Virus record (IMG/VR): IMGVR_UViG_2690316184_000005
Coordinates: 1-32,428 of that record
Reading direction: 5' to 3' (one strand)
Origin: a virus
Taxonomy: Duplodnaviria; Heunggongvirae; Uroviricota; Caudoviricetes
DNA length: 32,428 nucleotides
In this document: piece by piece, positions 1 to 9,292 of the stretch
Layout: each line of letters starts with the position of its first letter
Numbering within the stretch: position 1 is the first letter of the stretch
Position numbers and translations under genes: made by a program
The notes under the pieces: generated by a model
What the model was told of the DNA's origin: nothing
The model's database searches: none
What the model saw: only the letters and a program-made list of their open reading frames with translations

Positions 1-1158
1 ATGCTCACCGTTAAGCAGATTGAAGCAGCAAAGCCGAAAGAAAAACCATACCGCCTACTCGATGGTAATGGCCTGTACCTTTATGTCCCTGTATCAGGGA
101 AAAAGGTATGGCAGCTTCGCTACAAGATTGACGGTAAGGAGAAAATCCTGACTGTCGGAAAATATCCGCTTATGACTTTGCAGGAAGCAAGGGATAAGGC
201 ATGGACTGCGAGGAAAGACATCTCGGTTGGCATCGATCCGGTAAAGGCGAAAAAGGCTTCGTCTAACAACAATTCATTTAGTGCGATTTACAAGGAATGG
301 TACGAGCACAAGAAGCAAGTCTGGTCAGTAGGCTATGCAACTGAACTTGCCAAAATGTTTGATGACGACATTTTACCCATCATCGGCGGTCTTGAGATTC
401 AGGATATTGAGCCGATGCAACTGCTGGAAGTAATCCGCAGATTTGAAGATCGCGGTGCAATGGAGCGAGCCAACAAAGCCCGCAGAAGATGCGGCGAGGT
501 TTTTCGTTACGCTATTGTCACCGGAAGGGCTAAATATAACCCGGCACCTGACCTTGCAGACGCCATGAAAGGATACCGCAAGAAGAACTTCCCGTTCCTT
601 CCAGCAGACCAGATGCCTGCATTCAACAAAGCACTGGCAACATTTTCAGGAAGTATCGTATCGCTCATTGCGACAAAAGTTTTACGTTATACAGCCCTAA
701 GAACGAAAGAGCTTCGTTCCATGCTATGGAAGAACGTCGATTTTGAAAACAGGATTATCACCATCGACGCCAGTGTGATGAAGGGACGCAAAATTCATGT
801 GGTCCCGATGTCAGACCAGGTGGTTGAACTTCTCACTACGCTAAGCTCAATCACCAAACCAGTCTCAGAGTTTGTTTTTGCCGGGCGCAACGATAAGAAG
901 AAGCCAATCTGCGAGAACGCGGTATTGCTTGTGATCAAACAAATCGGCTATGAAGGTCTGGAAAGCGGTCACGGATTCAGGCATGAATTCAGCACGATTA
1001 TGAACGAGCACGAATGGCCTGCTGACGCTATTGAAGTGCAGCTGGCACATGCCAACGGTGGATCTGTGCGCGGTATTTACAACCATGCTCAGTATCTCGA
1101 TAAGCGCAGAGAAATGATGCAGTGGTGGGCGGATTGGCTTGATGAAAAGGAGGGGTAG
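1..1158 (+). CDS. int: Tyrosine recombinase / phage integrase (P4-family-like); ATG lies exactly at the window edge
   Basis: 385-aa ORF; N-terminal 'KPYRLLDGNGLYLYV...KVWQLRYKIDGKEK' arm-binding-type domain and C-terminal 'GHGFRHEF...SVRGIYNHAQY' catalytic motif (His/Arg...Tyr) typical of tyrosine integrases. Confidence 0.9.
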   Translation: MLTVKQIEAAKPKEKPYRLLDGNGLYLYVPVSGKKVWQLRYKIDGKEKILTVGKYPLMTLQEARDKAWTARKDISVGIDPVKAKKASSNNNSFSAIYKEWYEHKKQVWSVGYATELAKMFDDDILPIIGGLEIQDIEPMQLLEVIRRFEDRGAMERANKARRRCGEVFRYAIVTGRAKYNPAPDLADAMKGYRKKNFPFLPADQMPAFNKALATFSGSIVSLIATKVLRYTALRTKELRSMLWKNVDFENRIITIDASVMKGRKIHVVPMSDQVVELLTTLSSITKPVSEFVFAGRNDKKKPICENAVLLVIKQIGYEGLESGHGFRHEFSTIMNEHEWPADAIEVQLAHANGGSVRGIYNHAQYLDKRREMMQWWADWLDEKEG

Positions 1159-1302
1159 TGCCACCTACATCACTGCATGCATACACAGTAGTCTTAAGGC
1201 GCATTCAGATCAACTGTCATTTACTATGATTAACCTTAATCTTGCAAAATGTTGAGGTTTTTCTTAATCTTTACACCTATTCACATTTCTGGCGAGCATA
1301 GA

Positions 1303-1854
1303 ATGATAAGCAGCAAGGAAGATTACAAGTCATACCTTCTCCTTGACGAAAAGGCTATGAGGCTTCAGGGGTCAAGGTTAAAAAATATAATATTCAACGA
1401 TATATGGAGATTCCTTAGATTGCTAAGGAGGTTGGAGTATCTTACTAATTGCAAAGGAAATAAAGTTTTAATTCTGATTACAAGACTTAGGTTACGCAAA
1501 ATTCAAATGAAACTTGGATTTTCAATACCTATCAATACCTTTGGTCCAGGGTTATCAATACCACATTATGGTAACATAGTTGTTAACGCAGGAGCCAGGA
1601 TAGGTGCAAATTGCCGAATTCATGTAGGTACGAATATTGGCACATCAGCTGGAGCAGGACTTGAATCCCCTGTAATTGGTGATAATTGCTACATTGGTCC
1701 TGGAGCAAAAATTTACGGAAAGATAGTTATAGGTGACAATTGTGCAATAGGCGCGAATGCAGTCGTTAACAAAGATTTTAAAGATGGAAATTGCACTATT
1801 GCTGGCGTCCCTGCCAAGATAACATCATATAAAACATCAAAAGGTTATATATAA
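1303..1854 (+). CDS. Hexapeptide-repeat (left-handed beta-helix) acetyltransferase, serine-acetyltransferase/WbbJ-like; candidate lysogenic-conversion enzyme
   Basis: Tandem hexapeptide repeats visible: 'VNAGARIGANCRIHVGTNIGTSAGAGLESPVIGDNCYIGPGAKIYGKIVIGDNCAIGANAVV'; visibly AT-rich. Start uncertain (ATG at 1249, 1303 or later; 1303 has a weak GAG RBS). Confidence 0.7.
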   Translation: MISSKEDYKSYLLLDEKAMRLQGSRLKNIIFNDIWRFLRLLRRLEYLTNCKGNKVLILITRLRLRKIQMKLGFSIPINTFGPGLSIPHYGNIVVNAGARIGANCRIHVGTNIGTSAGAGLESPVIGDNCYIGPGAKIYGKIVIGDNCAIGANAVVNKDFKDGNCTIAGVPAKITSYKTSKGYI

Positions 1855-3921
1855 TTATCGATAGAAAACAGTTTTCAGTCCTGTGTTAGTCCCAACAGAG
1901 GTAATCCCTCTGTAAAGGCCGACATTACTGTTGGTTGTGCTATCAACCCTAACGATTCCATCAATGTTATTTATAAGTGAATTTGTGGTTTGTACAGCGT
2001 TGACAGCATAAGATTTACTTTGTGCTGATATATTTGATGCAACTAAAGTACCAGTTGTCATTGATACACCAACGCTTGACGAACCACTCTCAAAAACTGA
2101 ATTTTTAACAATAGCTTTTGCAACCCCACCAGAAATGTTTATATCTGCTCCGTTAAATGCCTGACTGATTCTCTTGACGTCTGACACGCTGATCAGAGAT
2201 ATACGTCCACCTGATAATATATCAAAGAAGAATGAAGACCTTGTGGGATTTGAACTTGATACTGAAATATCACTTAAGTAAACATTACCAATATTAAATC
2301 CGTATCTGATTTCTAACAAAATCGCCCCGTCATAACCTTGCCCATATATGCCATTAATATTTACATACGGTGTTGTGTTATTAACTGCCCGAATTGCGAC
2401 TATGTATCTTGATCCTTCAGAGTGAATGTTATTCGCGTTTACCTGCCCGGAAGTTATCTGTAGACCTGCGCTTAGCTCATAGGTTGCTGTCGTCTTAAGA
2501 TAAACATCACTGATAGTATTGAACCCATCAGATGAATCAACACCATTGCCAATCCTTCCTCGCCCACTAACACCACGAACAACACAGGAACTACCATAAA
2601 CACTAACACAACTATACATAGGGTTAGTTGCTGAGGCGTCATCACAAACCGCAAATACATTTGTTACTGTAACATCATTGGCCTGAACTTTGACTGCTCG
2701 CTTAAGTGCATTGTAAGTATAAACGCCATCAACCTTTATTTTCTTCCCGCTGAGCATATTTGATGATGAGTTGTAAATCTGAATAACAACACCATCAGCA
2801 TCTTCCCAAGGGTTTAGCTTGTAAATCCTTACGTTACTTATAACTCCACTTGATACCTCATCATCATTTGATGGTACTGGATCAAGTGCCGTTCCTACAA
2901 GAATCCCTCGACATGGCCCAATTACATCAACCTGAATACCATTTCCAATGGTGGTAATATTATGTATTGATATGTTATCAACGACAAAATTCAATACAGA
3001 ATTTGCATCTATGAAAATACCATAAGTTAGTTGAGAACCATTACTATCAAAAACATCAACATTCTTAACTACTGGATTAACAGCCCCTGTTTTGATATGA
3101 ACAGGCCTTCTAATTGCCATCATATTGCAGTTAACTTTAATATTGTTAAGCATGCATGAGTTTACTGTTATAAATGATCCTTCATCTCCGATAGCAACAA
3201 TTTCACCATTAATCAAATCTTTCGTAATATTAATGGTGCTGGCTTTAACTGTAGTTCCGTTAAGGTCCACATTCAATCCGTGCGCCATAATAGATTCAAT
3301 TGAATATTTCGCATCAGCACTCGTATCGATATACTGAGATGGCCAAACCAGTGTGTTATGAGGTGAAGAGTATTTATAAGATAGGCCATTCCTTGTTAAA
3401 TATAACTGTGATGCTGATACCGAAAACCCATCGGCAAGACCTGTAATTCCCGGAGCATATTCGTAAATCTCACCTGAGGATGTGGTGATTTTAAAACCAA
3501 CATTTGGATCTGAATCCATGGCACCATGTAATGCCCCATTTACTAAATTAACCCCACCAACACCATCTAACTCCTGTCTTAGTTGGTCAGGGTCATACTT
3601 CAGCACATTAGGAAAATAGAACTGCTGCGCACCATACGCATCATATACAGCCATAGAATGGCCTTGCACAGTTACGAACTTGGCAATCTGCCCGTTATAT
3701 ACCGGGTAACCAGCAGCGTTAATGATGATTGGTTGCGAAACAGGAATGTGAGAACCGTCTTCGTTTTCCACATAAACCTGAATCTGGTTTTCAGGATTTA
3801 CCGGATCAGTGTCAATTTTACCGATATAAATTTTGCCATTGGCAACCGCTTTAAAAGAACGCGCCATAGTGAAGAGTTGCGAAGGCATGCTTACCACAAC
3901 ATTTGCGGTGATATCTGACAT
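1855..3921 (-). CDS. Tailspike protein: P22 gp9-type N-terminal head-binding domain fused to a divergent C-terminal receptor-binding/enzymatic domain
   Basis: N-terminus '[58 protein letters not shown]...[14 protein letters not shown]' matches my recollection of the P22 tailspike N-terminal domain; the rest does not resemble the P22 endorhamnosidase. Start at ATG 3921 (GGAG upstream), not track start 3969. Confidence 0.9.
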
Positions 3922-4042
3922 TTCATTGCTCCAGACGAATGATATGATGCAACCATGATGTGATTGCATACAGAAATGGTACTATTGAGTATTTATCCAG
4001 TAGGTTACGATGCCATTCCACCCAACTGGTGAGGCATCAAGG

Positions 4043-4309
4043 ATGTACAGCAAATACGACGAGGCGCAGTTTCACTTGAGACTTCCGCATGAACTCCACG
4101 CGAAAATTAAGCAGCGTGCGAAGATGAATAACAGATCGCTGAACTCAGAGATAATTGCAGCGATTGAAGAATCATTGGATAAACAAAACTCTGCATCTGT
4201 TTACATTGACGATGCAGAGCGTATGGCAGAACAACAATCTGAGATGGTTAAGAAAATTGTCTTTGATACGCTTAAGACCATGTATAGCAATAATAAAAAG
4301 GAAACATAG
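4043..4309 (+). CDS. mnt: Mnt-like ribbon-helix-helix repressor (Arc/MetJ fold)
   Basis: 'FHLRLPHELHAKIKQRAKMNNRSLNSEIIAAIEESL...DDAERMAEQQSEMVKKIVFDTLK' parallels P22 Mnt ('FNFRMPMEVREKLKFRAEANGRSMNSELLQIVQDAL...NDAERLADEQSELVKKMVFDTLK' as recalled). Start chosen at ATG 4043 (GGTGAGG RBS 8 nt upstream); track start 4010 also possible. Confidence 0.7.
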   Translation: MYSKYDEAQFHLRLPHELHAKIKQRAKMNNRSLNSEIIAAIEESLDKQNSASVYIDDAERMAEQQSEMVKKIVFDTLKTMYSNNKKET

Positions 4310-4379
4310 AAATCTAGTTTCCGGCTAAAATGGCATTTCCTTCATGATATCCTGTGAAAAACTAAGGAGAGTTAGCCAT

Positions 4380-4865
4380 ATGAAAAAATCACTGTTAATT
4401 ATCCCGCTTCTGCTGGTTGGATGCGCAAAAGTAAGTGACTATCAAGCAAGTTGCGAACAACGCTATCAAAAGCTTAGCGATATGGCTAATTGCCTTGATA
4501 CCAGTGTGAAGAACGACTCACGCATGGCATCAGCACCAACACCTAAGCTGTATGTCCTTGCTGCAAAGATGCTCGGGCAAGGTGTCGATGAAGGCAAGAT
4601 AAGTGACGCACAGGCAAGACTTGAGCTTCAGAATCTTTATGTTCAATTACAAAGCCAAGAACAAGCCCAACAAATAGCACAAAGCCAAGCATTCCAGCAG
4701 GCTTTATTGAATTATCAGGCTGTAAACACAATGCAAGCGATCGAGCAAAAAGCGCGCCAGCCTGTTATAACTCAACCTTACCCAACACGCGTTGACACAT
4801 ATACAAACTGCAATTCAGGATTTGGAAACACGGTAACATGCAACAGTAGCAGTAACATCAGATAA
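4380..4865 (+). CDS. Predicted lipoprotein with Gln-rich coiled-coil-like region; function unknown (candidate superinfection-exclusion/moron protein)
   Basis: Signal peptide plus lipobox 'MKKSLLIIPLLLVGC'; AAGGAGA RBS 9 nt upstream of ATG 4380; same strand and immediately downstream of mnt. Confidence 0.65.
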   Translation: MKKSLLIIPLLLVGCAKVSDYQASCEQRYQKLSDMANCLDTSVKNDSRMASAPTPKLYVLAAKMLGQGVDEGKISDAQARLELQNLYVQLQSQEQAQQIAQSQAFQQALLNYQAVNTMQAIEQKARQPVITQPYPTRVDTYTNCNSGFGNTVTCNSSSNIR

Positions 4866-4955
4866 CAATCAGCAAAGGTATCGCCTATGCAGAGGGATAC
4901 GATAAACCTCGCGTTCTACATATTTGGTTTTTGCACGTTCCTGGTGTTTGAAAGG

Positions 4956-7235
4956 CTATTCTGACAACGAATCAGACTTCGCACCCTGCGTCAGTGCATT
5001 AATCGCTTTTTGCGCTTGCTGCATGGCTTTCTCAAACGCTGTCGATCCGCGTGGGGTGTTTGCCATTCGGAGCATTGCATTTCTGAATGGCTCGCTCTCA
5101 TAGGCGCGAGTAAGAAGTCCGTAGCTTACTGCTGCGCCAGTTGTCGCCGGGTTCATTGCCGTCCCATATCCGATAATGAACGGGATGGTTTGCTGCCCTG
5201 TTGGTGTTGTTACTGCCGCTTTTGCTGCCTGCTGAGTGGACTGAAGGTAGTTTTTCAATCCTTTCAGATAAGCGGCTTCCTGACCTTTAAATGTGATGCC
5301 AGTCTGGTTTTGCAGGATGTTAAGCTGTCGAAGGAACTGGTCAGGGGAACCACCTGATTTCTCCATCGCCTTTCCAATGATGCCATTGCGCATTTGCGCC
5401 CTGCCAACACGACCAACTGAGTTATACAGCGTCTTAATTTCCGATTTGTTCTTGCTGAATAGCATGTTGTTGACAACTTCCGGCGTCAGGTCGCCTTTCA
5501 TGAGAACATTCTTCAGCCTGGTATTCTTTAGTTTCGCCGCTTCGTCAGCGTAGACGGCATTGGCCTGCTGATATTTACGGAGAGTATCGTTGCCAAGATT
5601 CTGACCAATGGCACCATTGATATCGTCTGTCATCGCCTTGTAAACGCGCTGAATGGCGGCATCGGAACGGTTTGGTAACACTGGTCGCTCACCCTTCACG
5701 TCCATTCTGAACTGGCTGCGCAGATCGCTTAATTGCTTCAAATCCAGATTTACCGGACCATCAGGACCAGCATTGCGAACAAGCTCATCACGATAGGACT
5801 GAAGTTTTGAAATAGTCTCGTTATCGGCGACCTTACCAAGCTTCTGCAGGTTAGATATTTCTGTATCAATCTGCTGAATTGCTCGAGCAGGCTGGATATT
5901 GACTCCCGCCATTGCATTCTGAACCTGCTCAAGACGGTTCCCTGCAGCACGACGAATTCCTGATGTTTTCGCTTTAAGGCTGTCAATAACAACAGCTGGA
6001 TCATACTCACCGAATTTATCAGCAAATCTCTGCACCAACTGGCTTCTCGCTTCCTGTTGCGTTGCTCTCATCCCGCTTGTGCCAGCCAGGGGGATATTTT
6101 CCGCTGTCGTCTGCGCCATTTTCCCGACGCGGGAAGTAGGCTGTAACAGGTCTGTGGTGTGCAGAGGAACTCCTTCACGCTCTGCAAATCTGATAGCCTG
6201 CTGCGCTTCTGGCGCAATAGCACCACGAACGCCACGATAAGCAGCACCTAATCCACGTCCGGCAGCGTTAATAGCACCGCCAGCCAGCACACCAACGCCT
6301 AAATCGGTGGCGAGGGCTTCCGCATCATCTTTCGCACTATTTGCAGCAAGTGATCCAACTGCGTTTTCTGCGAGAAGTCGTGTTGCACCCTGAGCAATTC
6401 GACCAGCAAGTGTTGGTGCCTGTACCGCCGCTCTCTCAACGCCAGCAGGAGTGAGGTAAGGCAATGCTTCAGCAAACACCCTGCCCTCTGTCGTTTGTGG
6501 AGTCAGCGCGCCTTGCTGAAGGCCAAAGTCCTGCTCTAATCCCTGCGTTGTTACTCGTGGCGCTGGTTGATATGTACCATCGCCAATGCCGAGTTTACCG
6601 CCAGCCCATGCAGCCGCACTTGTTACAGCATCGGCAACTGATGCAGGTATGTTTGCCACGTTCACGCCAGCCTGCACCAGTCCGCGACCAGTTTCAGCCG
6701 CGGCATTGCCAAGGTCGGAAATGAAACCTCCTTGCTGCTGTGGCGCTGCCTGTGTACTTTGCTGTACAGGCTGTTGTGTAGCTTGATTCTTCCTAGGGAG
6801 GTATTCATCAGCTTGCTGGTTGTGCAGACTCTCCGCATATGCAGTGGCATCGTCAGGATTGTCGAACATACCAAGATGCTTTCCCGTCCTCATGAAGTTA
6901 TCAATAGCTTCATCATCAGACATAATGCGACCATCATCACTAACGGTAGGAATCAGCACCTCTCTACCATCTATATTGGTAGACATGCTCCGCACAGTGC
7001 TAATGCTGCCATCAGAGTTTTTAACAACAGGCCGATTGTGAATGTCAATATTACCCTTCTCTAGCAGACCTCTAGGGTAAGCAGAGTAAAACGCTTGTTT
7101 TGCCTGCTCTGCATTTTCTCCGGCTTGCGGGGCCACGACTTCATTGAAGTATTGTTCCTGAGCCTGCGCTTTTTGTTCTGGTGCTAACGCCTGATACTGT
7201 GGAGAAGCGATAACATCTTTCCATGCTTTAGCCAT
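4956..7235 (-). CDS. Ejection (internal virion) protein, gp16 position of P22-like phages
   Basis: Synteny: last gene of the gp14-gp7-gp20-gp16 block; start overlaps upstream stop (TAATG); 759 aa with Ala/Gln-rich low-complexity stretches. Confidence 0.65.
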   Translation of the reverse strand: MAKAWKDVIASPQYQALAPEQKAQAQEQYFNEVVAPQAGENAEQAKQAFYSAYPRGLLEKGNIDIHNRPVVKNSDGSISTVRSMSTNIDGREVLIPTVSDDGRIMSDDEAIDNFMRTGKHLGMFDNPDDATAYAESLHNQQADEYLPRKNQATQQPVQQSTQAAPQQQGGFISDLGNAAAETGRGLVQAGVNVANIPASVADAVTSAAAWAGGKLGIGDGTYQPAPRVTTQGLEQDFGLQQGALTPQTTEGRVFAEALPYLTPAGVERAAVQAPTLAGRIAQGATRLLAENAVGSLAANSAKDDAEALATDLGVGVLAGGAINAAGRGLGAAYRGVRGAIAPEAQQAIRFAEREGVPLHTTDLLQPTSRVGKMAQTTAENIPLAGTSGMRATQQEARSQLVQRFADKFGEYDPAVVIDSLKAKTSGIRRAAGNRLEQVQNAMAGVNIQPARAIQQIDTEISNLQKLGKVADNETISKLQSYRDELVRNAGPDGPVNLDLKQLSDLRSQFRMDVKGERPVLPNRSDAAIQRVYKAMTDDINGAIGQNLGNDTLRKYQQANAVYADEAAKLKNTRLKNVLMKGDLTPEVVNNMLFSKNKSEIKTLYNSVGRVGRAQMRNGIIGKAMEKSGGSPDQFLRQLNILQNQTGITFKGQEAAYLKGLKNYLQSTQQAAKAAVTTPTGQQTIPFIIGYGTAMNPATTGAAVSYGLLTRAYESEPFRNAMLRMANTPRGSTAFEKAMQQAQKAINALTQGAKSDSLSE

Positions 7236-8590
7236 TAATCACCCCATAGTGAAGAAAAGTTACTGCTGGTTGCTGGCTGTGATACCTGTGCAGGTTGAGA
7301 TTGCTGCCGCTGTGATTTTCCAACATTAACGTTATATTGTTGGTTGTAATTGTTGGTGTATTCCTGAATCTCACGAATCGACTGCTGCATAGCCTCCGGG
7401 CTTGAATAGTCAACCTGCGGCATCCCCTGAAAATACATCTTCGCTTCTGCAACGGTGTTAATACCACTGGCACCCATGTCCCTTGCTGCCGCCACACCCT
7501 GATTCTGCATTCTGCCCTGAATACGTTGTGCTGAGTTATATAACTGGCGCTGCTCTTTTCCTGTTAATCGGCTGCGAACATCAGCACCAATTGCTGGATT
7601 ACCTGCACCGCCTGTCATTCCTGTCATGAAATCGAGAGCAGAAGCGTCTGCATTTGCGATCGCGTCGATATCCTTCTTCATGGCATAGTTTTGTGCTGAT
7701 GCAGACGATGTTGCAGGCGCTGCGATTGAACTGGCAGGAACGCGAACCATATTCCCCTCGTTGTCGATGCCTTCGTAGAACGCATTAGCCCCAGCGCCGT
7801 GAAGCTTCCCGCCTACCGTTACAGTTCTGCCATCTGATAACTGAACTGTACGCTCATTATTCCCAACCGACCCTTTCATTGATGCTCTCTGCATCGATAA
7901 ATCCTGACCGCGCATCGTGATATTCTGACCACGTGCTGTTAGCGCCTCTCCAGCCTGATTGCTGCGGATTGTCTCTGCCAGCCTGCCTCGGTCAATTTCA
8001 CGACCAGCCATCTTATCCTGAACATTGAAGTAATCAATCGGACCGAGAGCAGCCATCCCAAGGTGATCAACAAACTCACCAAATCCTGAAGGGTTCTGCT
8101 GATACATTTGAGCAACGCTGTTAGGGTCAACACCGACGCGAGTCAGTTCCTTGGCGTTGTTTTGCAGCCATGATTGCATTGCTTCTGGAGACGATGACGC
8201 AAGGCGTGCGCCAGCCGCTAAGGTGCCGATAGAATTACGCTGATCTTCATCAATGAATCCCATGCCTTTACGAACGGATTCAATCTGGTCTGGATATTGA
8301 GTAGCCAACTGACGCAAAGCACCGCGATCACCAGACGCATAAGCATTAGCGTACGCCTGCTGAAATTCTTTCTGCCGCTGAGCCTGCTTTTCCTGCTGAA
8401 ACACCCCTGCAATACCTGAAAGGCCTTGCAAAGCAGTCAGCCCAACATTGTTAGCGCCTGAACGCTCAATATCATTGTTCTGCCTGATAAGCTGAAGCGT
8501 ATTGCCGATGTCATTTACGCTCGGAGCGTTTGAGTTGACGCCGCCGATACCAGCCAACAATCCGCCGTTTGTTCCTTGCCAAGTAGCCAT
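7235..8590 (-). CDS. Ejection protein, gp20-like
   Basis: Synteny and size (451 aa vs about 471 in P22 as recalled); AGGGG RBS; translationally coupled to neighbours. Confidence 0.7.
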
Positions 8591-8599
8591 GATTACCCC

Positions 8600-9292
8600 T
8601 TAAAACAACGAGCCAAGCAATCCGATACCAGCACCAATGCCAGCGCCCCAAGGCGTTGATGTTCCCAAAAGGCTGGCAAGACCTGCACCGGCAATCGCAC
8701 CAGACGTGCCACCGCTAATTGCAGTCTGAAGACTTGATGGTTTATTGGCATTAGCAGCGGCAAGTGCTGCGCTTTGCTGTGCAATGCTGCTCATGTTGTT
8801 GGCGTATGTCTGCCCAGCGTTTGCCTGACCTTGCAGCGCACCAAGCCCAACGTTTGCCAGATTGTTGTAATTGCTCATCTGATTTGATAACCAAGACTGA
8901 CCGAGTGTCGGCGCGATCGTAGCCAGTTGATTGCTTGTGGCTGTCGAACCAAGTCCACCCGTCGCCTCCGCAGCAGCAAGACTCTGGTAACGAGCCTGAC
9001 CTGCAAGGTCTTTATACTGCTGAGAATTGTAATACTGATTAAGTGCCTGCCCCTGACCTTCTAAACTGGAAAGGTTCTGAAGCTGGTTAACATACTGCTC
9101 CGCAAGAGGCGTGAACGGAGCAAGGTTTTTCATGATCGTCTGCCACTGCTGATTTTGCAGATCTGCAGCATACTTCTGAGCTTCTGCTGCATACTTTGCG
9201 CTTTTATCAGAACTGCCACCTTTCCCGCCTTTTTCAGGGCAATAAGGTTCCTCGCCGCGCAGTTTTCTGCCCAGCTTAAATGCATATAACAT
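8600..9292 (-). CDS. Ejection protein, gp7-like (Gly/Ala-rich C-terminus)
   Basis: 230 aa, position between gp14-like and gp20-like; N-terminus 'MLYAFKLGRKLRGEEPY'. Confidence 0.7.
   Translation of the reverse strand: MLYAFKLGRKLRGEEPYCPEKGGKGGSSDKSAKYAAEAQKYAADLQNQQWQTIMKNLAPFTPLAEQYVNQLQNLSSLEGQGQALNQYYNSQQYKDLAGQARYQSLAAAEATGGLGSTATSNQLATIAPTLGQSWLSNQMSNYNNLANVGLGALQGQANAGQTYANNMSSIAQQSAALAAANANKPSSLQTAISGGTSGAIAGAGLASLLGTSTPWGAGIGAGIGLLGSLF

Follow-up and report, generated by a model that had tools for sequence, protein, structure and literature searches.

Genes at the locus and architecture of the lipoprotein

The stretch of DNA analyzed here (the window; 32,428 nucleotides [nt], IMG/VR record IMGVR_UViG_2690316184_000005) is a P22-like (Lederbergvirus-type) Escherichia coli prophage that adjoins tRNA-Arg and yfdC, and an identical segment is annotated in E. 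coli strain KD602. Between a homolog of the P22 repressor gene mnt and a homolog of the ejection-protein gene 16 lies an open reading frame (ORF) that encodes a predicted lipoprotein of 161 amino acids (aa), which we consider a strong candidate for a new kind of phage-exclusion protein. The features of this part of the window are as follows:

4043–4309, plus strand: mnt homolog, 88 aa, Arc/Mnt ribbon-helix-helix repressor (Pfam Arc and Repressor_Mnt)
4341–4369, plus strand: sieA-type leader with Shine-Dalgarno sequence, TTCATGATATCCTGTGAAAAACTAAGGAG, 86% identical to the P22 sieA leader TTCATGGTATCCTGCACAAAACTAAGGAG
4380–4865, plus strand: lipoprotein gene, 161 aa plus stop, member of PHROG 6067
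4380–4424, plus strand: signal peptide (residues 1 to 14) and lipobox L-V-G-C, with the Cys15 codon at 4422–4424 and Ala at position +2
4425–4679, plus strand: N-terminal helical-bundle domain (residues 16 to 100) with Cys25 and Cys38, the most conserved part of the wider family
4629–4763, plus strand: Gln-rich segment (residues 84 to 128, 33% Gln), predicted helical with low confidence (AlphaFold2)
4794–4850, plus strand: C-terminal predicted beta-hairpin with Cys144 and Cys154 (T-N-C-x3-G-N-x3-C), strands 139 to 146 and 150 to 157, low predicted local distance difference test score (pLDDT)
4956–7235, minus strand: gene-16-type ejection (DNA transfer) protein gene, convergent with the lipoprotein gene

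The lipoprotein ORF begins at the ATG at 4380, 10 nt downstream of an AAGGAG (4364–4369), and its stop codon ends at 4865. RefSeq places the start at the same codon in a 100% identical region, and the same agreement was found for the start of mnt, which lies 70 nt upstream. A longer reading of 173 aa from 4344 was rejected, since relatives show no coding conservation in the DNA before 4380. The N terminus, MKKSLLIIPLLLVG followed by Cys15 (MKK-SLLIIPLLL-VG-C15), is a canonical type II signal with a positive n-region, a hydrophobic h-region, and a lipobox of the form [LVI][ASTVI][GAS]C within the first ca. 35 residues, and no other ORF matched this strict pattern in the six frames of the whole 32-kb window.

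In an alignment of 28 diverse homologs (46 to 89% identical), Cys15 is invariant, the +2 residue is never Asp, four further cysteines (25, 38, 144, and 154) are conserved, and residues 16 to 90 form the best-conserved stretch. No hydrophobic segment was found past the signal peptide (maximum Kyte-Doolittle mean over 19 residues, 0.47). The product is thus predicted from its sequence to be a lipoprotein lipidated at Cys15 and facing the periplasm, and the +2 rule, on which this point depends, predicts an outer-membrane location. The signal peptide, the lipobox, the four cysteines, and the lack of a transmembrane (TM) segment would place the protein in the very compartment in which the P22-type ejection conduit assembles (PMC10883804). 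AlphaFold2 models four helices (residues 18 to 28, 32 to 45, 53 to 71, and 76 to 100), with pLDDT values of 80 to 88 over residues 20 to 95 of a bundle that is confident for about residues 18 to 100; the Cys144/Cys154 pair of the less confidently modeled hairpin is kept even in remote relatives.

An earlier note on this DNA had pointed to a clear lipobox signal, a Gln-rich helical region, a position right after an Mnt-like repressor on the same strand and convergent with the ejection-protein operon, and the neighborhood of P22 sieA. The lipobox, the gene order, and the convergence with the gene-16 homolog are borne out, and the Gln-rich composition is real, its helicity being a low-confidence prediction. 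The repressor is confirmed by its Pfam matches (Arc, 3e-14; Repressor_Mnt, 8e-14) and by 47% identity to P22 Mnt, and P22 indeed carries sieA in the same place, a correspondence that extends to the upstream DNA of 15 relatives, as described below.

An allelic replacement of sieA behind a shared leader

In P22 the gene order is 16 → ← sieA ← orf59a ← mnt / arc → ant → 9. We compared it with ca. 87 loci in which the lipoprotein gene is present (80 IMG/VR contigs, phage Gally, loci from Tatumella, Providencia, and Citrobacter, and one metagenome-assembled genome). The lipoprotein gene was directly convergent with a gene-16 homolog in every locus with enough flank, and the upstream side varied: mnt alone in most loci, including the window, mnt-orf59a with a gap of 350 nt, ant-arc-mnt, or the tailspike gene directly. 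The prophage of E. coli O104:H4 C227-11 has the order mnt-orf104-lipoprotein gene, with gaps of −4 and 25 nt.

In 15 of these prophages, the DNA over 590 nt upstream of the lipoprotein start is 97 to 98% identical to the P22 DNA upstream of sieA. The shared segment runs from the 3' part of mnt through orf59a and the mnt terminator to the annotated sieA promoter (PsieA); the identity stops 7 to 11 nt before the start codon and resumes at only ca. 69% inside gene 16. Behind the promoter and leader of sieA, these prophages therefore carry the lipoprotein ORF as an allelic replacement of the sieA ORF. The window holds a shorter version, with only the proximal 29 nt of the sieA leader left, the Shine-Dalgarno sequence included. 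The type-B sieA of E. coli HS (HS1), the function of which has been reported (PMC10883804), is preceded by CAAAACTAAGGAG just before its start, and AAAACTAAGGAG precedes three ORFs, namely, P22 sieA (L008, ~4832–4870, minus strand), HS1 sieA (L093, ~41102–41130, minus strand), and the lipoprotein gene (window, 4357–4369). This shared element looks like a conserved recombination junction or a translation-initiation cassette for the swapping of cargo genes.

The lipoprotein gene and sieA (type A or B) were mutually exclusive in the ca. 87 loci. Neither SieA type A or B nor the motif FxRYPxEAxxFNK was found in any of them by tblastn or by six-frame regular-expression search, the latter matching only P22 and HS1 and not the window; with P22 and HS1 SieA (types A and B) as queries, tblastn at E ≤ 1 gave no match to the window or to a single lipoprotein locus. 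The neighbors of the lipoprotein gene are diverse. The tailspikes have many types of receptor-binding domain and match only over the first ca. 120 aa, the head-binding part, and the gene-16 proteins are 31 to 97% identical. This independence of both tailspike and gene-16 type accords better with a target in a conserved step than with a receptor that differs by serotype.

An optional cassette under strong constraint

Comparison with empty-site prophages, 86 to 98% identical to the window, delimits the following feature:

4277–4885, plus strand: indel cassette comprising the last mnt codons, the leader, the lipoprotein ORF, and 20 nt of 3' flank

Relative to E. coli A11, in which the order is tailspike gene, mnt, 89 nt, gene 16, homology ends at 4276 and resumes at 4886. 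Empty-site alleles of this kind (mnt, 89 nt, gene 16, with the same gene-16 3' end) occur in A11, M18, and ETEC4069, and in WP3-W18 only the tailspike gene and gene 16 are found, mnt being absent too. The gene thus shows the presence/absence polymorphism between collinear relatives, with clean boundaries, that is typical of morons.

Over 54 distinct alleles of 483 nt, the ratio of nonsynonymous to synonymous polymorphism (pN/pS) was 0.06, falling to 0.01 in the C-terminal tail (residues 129 to 161) in spite of a pS of 0.30. Among 5,426 complete E. coli genomes, 186 carry the lipoprotein gene, 21 an HS1-type sieA (about nine times fewer), and 826 this type of gene 14. The lipoprotein gene is present in, among others, the O104:H4 outbreak strain C227-11 and the adherent-invasive E. 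coli (AIEC) LF82.

Between the lipoprotein gene and gene 16 there is also a small ORF of 25 codons (4887–4964, plus strand), which overlaps the stop of gene 16 and encodes the hydrophobic peptide MQRDTINLAFYIFGFCTFLVFERLF. Ca. 47 related loci have it intact, with an invariant hydrophobic core, and it is found also in the empty-site prophages, where it follows mnt behind a strong GGAGG; P22 does not have it. Its product may be a small membrane protein of the mnt operon.

Expression in lysogens

Expression was examined in the published RNA-seq data of LF82 (PMC9928086, S1 Table), the prophage Gally of which encodes an ortholog (GALLYPH_13/LF82_138) 96.9% identical to the window protein. In lysogeny broth (LB) at stationary phase, its normalized expression was 70 against a prophage median of 15.6 (4.5-fold), making it the second most transcribed gene of the prophage after the c2 repressor (727). 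In macrophages its log2 fpkm (fragments per kilobase per million mapped reads) was 10.3 after 1 h and 8.6 after 6 h, and in the samples labeled B1 and B6 it was ca. 8, while the adjacent ejection-protein genes stayed at 2.3 to 4.1. With the late genes silent, the ortholog is therefore transcribed in the lysogen independently of the late operon, and the outcome that the earlier note had named as refuting an exclusion role, expression only late as a virion component, does not hold for it.

The context in Gally differs from that in the window: the leader is divergent, and an additional gene on the opposite strand separates the lipoprotein gene from mnt. The additional gene, GALLYPH_14 (L001, 5447–5866, minus strand), is an ORF of 139 aa with a weak PEGA-domain match only, and its expression exceeds even that of the lipoprotein gene (log2 fpkm of ca. 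10 to 11 outside LB).

In the window, a scan of the DNA from mnt to the lipoprotein gene turned up no convincing candidate for a sigma-70 promoter or a terminator. Since, in addition, the −35 part of PsieA is missing, read-through from the mnt promoter is the likelier source of transcription there. Judging from the gene order and from the published account of the region (PMC2629481), late transcription towards the tailspike gene must cross the lipoprotein gene in antisense.

A probably recruited branch of an older envelope-lipoprotein family

The protein matches the PHROG 6067 profile over its full length (E = 4.4e-110, positions 1 to 161 of 161), as do 25 of 25 diverse family members tested; this PHROG carries no functional annotation. 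No Pfam, NCBIfam, PADLOC, or PDB-sequence match was obtained with the protein or with the 25-member family alignment, and an NCBIfam GspK match over the Gln-rich segment (E = 9e-4; cutoff, 130 bits) was treated as compositional.

A profile search of 1.8 billion representatives extended the family to 252 clusters (E ≤ 1e-3), many members of which are lipoproteins of 125 to 170 aa built on one plan: a lipobox, V-x3-Q-x2-C-E, a second Cys, K-L-Y-x-L-x-A ... D-A-R-x-E-L-Q, a variable linker, and a T-x-C-x3-G-x4-C C terminus. Remote relatives align over positions 1 to 100, with the lipobox Cys at least 90% conserved in the remote set, and the lipobox and the four cysteines persist down to about 27% identity. 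Some of the distant relatives are chromosomal, such as one between holE and ycgN near minCDE in an Enterobacterales genome and another near uvrC, pgsA, earP, and bio genes. The neighbors of chromosomal relatives, including those on metagenomic contigs of a subgroup of ca. 130 aa, are mutually unrelated and uninformative, and functional hints from them were dropped. Given such relatives, the prophage clade looks like a recruited branch of an older family of envelope lipoproteins.

Other residents of the slot are only 33 to 40% identical to the window protein, and one of these overlaps mnt by ATGA. In the slot-resident relative P0131 (L095, 721–1185, plus strand; 33% identity), the lipobox Cys is lost and an Ala-x-Ala type I-like signal is present, which predicts a soluble periplasmic version of the family.

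Comparison with known exclusion and lipoprotein systems

SieA is the only characterized inhibitor of the P22-type ejection-protein conduit and is carried by only a third of the sequenced P22-like phages; it is an inner-membrane protein of 162 to 164 aa with three (3 to 4) predicted TM helices and, on the cytoplasmic side, the motif FxRYPxEAxxFNK (Leavitt et al. 2024, PMC10883804). The lipoprotein resembles it in genetic setting: both occupy the slot between genes 16 and 9, convergent with 16, behind the same leader and Shine-Dalgarno sequence and, in 15 loci, the same promoter region. They are also similar in length (161 aa against 162 to 164), and the Gally ortholog, like SieA, is expressed from the prophage. 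At this slot, both are found only in P22-like elements of Enterobacterales. The proteins themselves, however, share no sequence similarity. SieA has no signal peptide and sits in the inner membrane, while the window protein is a predicted secreted lipoprotein with neither a TM segment nor the FxRYPxEAxxFNK motif; and the function of SieA is demonstrated, whereas exclusion by the lipoprotein is a candidate role.

In the Cor and Llp systems, the lipoprotein blocks an outer-membrane receptor protein (FhuA). T5 Llp and the Cor proteins of phi80, N15, and HK022 are, like the window protein, small phage or prophage lipoproteins with a type II signal peptide, and they protect the cell at the entry step; T5 Llp and phi80/N15 Cor have been cited as lipoprotein exclusion factors (PMC10883804). 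The window protein differs from them in being about twice their size, in having chromosomal homologs, and in its predicted fold, in which a helical bundle is followed by a Gln-rich helix and a hairpin closed by a disulfide. In mechanism, the precedent closest to the mode proposed below is the prophage lipoprotein Ltp of Streptococcus thermophilus phage TP-J34, which, according to a title cited in PMC10883804, blocks DNA injection by binding the tape measure protein and not a receptor. Its host is Gram-positive and its target a siphovirus, and the Pfam and PHROG scans of the lipoprotein gave no Ltp-like family or other evidence of relatedness. Lambda Bor/Iss and F-plasmid TraT, outer-membrane lipoproteins that confer serum resistance or surface exclusion, are similar as moron-type lipoproteins expressed from a resident mobile element.

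Two other roles were considered and set aside. A spanin (Rz1) role was rejected, as a separate embedded Rz1-like lipoprotein is present in the lysis cassette of the window, and inhibition of a lytic-transglycosylase domain of the gene-16 protein was dropped, as the window gp16 has no Pfam SLT domain and the lipoprotein occurs with many gp16 types.

Proposed exclusion at DNA delivery and its rivals

The best single explanation of these data is that the lipoprotein is a periplasm-facing functional alternative to SieA, not homologous to it, that excludes superinfecting P22-like phages at the step of DNA delivery. We favor it, as a serious possibility that still falls short of being probable, because of the precise substitution of sieA, the mutual exclusivity with it, the deep retention beside the ejection genes, the expression of the Gally ortholog in the lysogen, the predicted periplasmic location, and the independence of tailspike and gene-16 type. 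The gene would be transcribed in the lysogen, opposite to the late operon, by read-through from mnt, from the sieA-type leader, or both, the promoter in the window being a putative one. After export, the protein would be lipidated at Cys15 and, with Ala at +2, probably held in the inner leaflet of the outer membrane, and two disulfides (Cys25-Cys38 and Cys144-Cys154) may form, as judged from the sequence. What would follow export we infer throughout. The four-helix N-terminal domain, the only part modeled confidently, would lie directly beneath the membrane, and the Gln-rich helix and a Pro-rich linker, in the low-confidence part of the model, might push the disulfide-closed C-terminal hairpin into the periplasm. 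When a P22-like virion ejects gp7, gp20, and gp16, the lipoprotein would bind the nascent trans-periplasmic conduit or its entry point at the outer membrane, and the DNA, by analogy with SieA, Llp, and Ltp, would be kept from the cytoplasm. The broader reading is more tentative: the family may be a second, structurally unrelated solution of the SieA type, usually anchored in the outer membrane and disabling the gp7/gp20/gp16 conduit from the periplasm, that was recruited from ancient chromosomal lipoproteins of proteobacteria into the sieA expression cassette.

Several observations weigh against exclusion. No exclusion phenotype is reported for any family member in the literature searched. The anchoring is also less certain than the +2 residue suggests, since the first helix follows Cys15 without a tether and sorting to the outer membrane is therefore less secure. 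The comparison with known exclusion factors that the earlier note had proposed came back negative: BLASTP against P22 SieA gave no alignment at E ≤ 100; the PHROG Cor match (phrog_1119, E = 0.032) covers residues 1 to 31, the signal peptide only, and is no sign of homology; no Llp family was among the PHROG matches at E ≤ 1 in a general scan in which Llp was not compared directly; and Pfam gave no Lambda_Bor, TraT, or Rz1 match at E ≤ 1. The lack of a PADLOC match points in the same direction, and fold searches returned generic helical bundles with no specific structural match. Between genes 16 and 9 lies the hypervariable "ant moron," which is known to house a large assortment of unrelated and functionally uncharacterized genes (PMC2629481), so that position alone is weak evidence. 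The missing −35 part of PsieA leaves autonomous transcription of the gene in the window only putative, and in LF82 the 4.5-fold expression of the ortholog missed the 5-fold cutoff (78) by which morons were defined, so that the gene was not listed as one (PMC9928086). Moreover, the distant homologs (27 to 45% identity) are stand-alone chromosomal genes in housekeeping neighborhoods without phage context, and a scan of IMG/VR with the ca. 130-aa subgroup gave no relatives in viruses; the fold in itself is therefore not an antiphage one. Finally, the strongest induction of the Gally ortholog takes place inside macrophages, which could point to a role in host interaction.

This last observation opens the main rival, that of a fitness moron in the manner of lambda Bor, whose product would aid the lysogen under envelope or host stress (macrophages, serum) with no effect on phages. 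Relative to LB, the Gally ortholog is induced ca. 16-fold within 1 h in macrophages and ca. 4-fold in the B1 and B6 samples, and the five rightmost Gally genes are induced together. A role of this kind would also suit a family whose distant members are ordinary chromosomal lipoproteins, the carriage by the pathogenic lineages of C227-11 and LF82, and a strong purifying selection with no sign of an arms race. What it leaves unexplained is why the ORF should lie precisely behind the promoter and leader of sieA and never be found alongside sieA, and why members only 33 to 40% identical reside in the same slot by the ejection genes of P22-like elements in several genera. The chromosomal homologs have no conserved neighbors that would point to a pathway, and the LF82 study saw no negative effect of Gally on macrophage survival, a gene-specific benefit not having been assayed there. 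We regard this alternative as unlikely, and the remaining two are less likely still.

Masking of a receptor in the manner of Cor or Llp, in which the lipoprotein would bind the periplasmic face of OmpA, OmpC, or FhuA instead of the ejection conduit, would suit a predicted outer-membrane lipoprotein (Ala at +2) with a prophage-expressed ortholog in Gally. The P22-like phage Sf6 uses OmpA and OmpC as secondary receptors. Lipoprotein exclusion factors are an established class, as exemplified by T5 Llp and phi80/N15 Cor (PMC10883804). It is nevertheless improbable: the similarity to Cor does not go beyond the signal peptide, the predicted soluble P0131 is hard to square with a need for outer-membrane anchoring, and the precise substitution of sieA suggests the step that SieA targets. 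We give the least credence, and very little of it, to a role internal to the phage, with the gene serving as a transcribed spacer that modulates the late read-through entering the tailspike gene, aiding lysis as an accessory, or being a remnant in decay, and the protein idle in the lysogen. The ant-moron region is thought to affect how often late transcription reaches the tailspike gene (PMC2629481), the lipoprotein gene is antisense to that read-through, and the empty-site prophages indicate that it is dispensable. Against this stand the constraint at the protein level (most severe in the tail), the retention of the lipobox and four cysteines in remote relatives, the transcription of the Gally ortholog while the late genes are silent, and the fact that the prophage already has an embedded Rz1-type lipoprotein of its own. 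Taken together, exclusion at DNA delivery remains the reading that we prefer.

Neighboring genes

The other genes of the left part of the window are as follows:

1–1158, plus strand: integrase gene
1249–1854, plus strand: hexapeptide acetyltransferase gene, at the left end of the window between the integrase and tailspike genes
1855–3921, minus strand: tailspike gene
7235–8590, minus strand: homolog of gene 20 (P22 ejection-protein gene)
8600–9292, minus strand: homolog of gene 7 (P22 ejection-protein gene)

The hexapeptide-repeat acyltransferase is named "serine O-acetyltransferase" in RefSeq and is probably an O-antigen acetylation (lysogenic conversion) gene. The mnt gene is an orphan in the window, the DNA that separates it from the tailspike gene containing neither arc nor ant; this intergenic segment (3922–4042) keeps only TGGTACTATTGAG, a half-site-like remnant of the P22 Mnt operator, of which Gally keeps the full palindrome AGACCACTGTGGTCT. 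The gene-16 homolog encodes 759 aa, against 609 aa in P22, with no Pfam match, and its relatives beside the same lipoprotein gene range from 665 to 886 aa, some with an SLT lytic-transglycosylase domain; these lengths and the variable domain show the ejection protein to be highly mosaic. In the KD602 prophage, an HNH endonuclease gene (L007, 30202–30717, plus strand) lies between the coat and scaffold genes, which are adjacent in the window, and the replicative helicase is annotated as a truncated pseudogene abutting the gene for the terminase large subunit, with no lysis or nin genes listed between them.

Significance

The lipoprotein ORF was already visible as an anonymous ant-moron gene in the E. 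coli B7A prophage drawn in Fig. 3 of PMC2629481, and B7A is among the matches to the lipoprotein gene; no functional study of the family was found in the literature searched. If exclusion is true, the protein would be a new, nonhomologous variant of the prophage lipoprotein exclusion factors and a second type of occupant of the sieA cassette, and the locus would be a clear case of nonhomologous genes swapped behind one conserved promoter/leader junction. A soluble protein of this kind would be an experimentally convenient probe of the assembly of the trans-periplasmic DNA conduit of podoviruses. Resistance to P22-like phages in about 3% of E. coli, O104:H4 and LF82 among them, would then have an explanation, and the protein would be a host-range determinant relevant to phage therapy and typing. 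If the gene is instead a macrophage-induced envelope factor, it would be a candidate prophage fitness gene in pathogenic E. coli.

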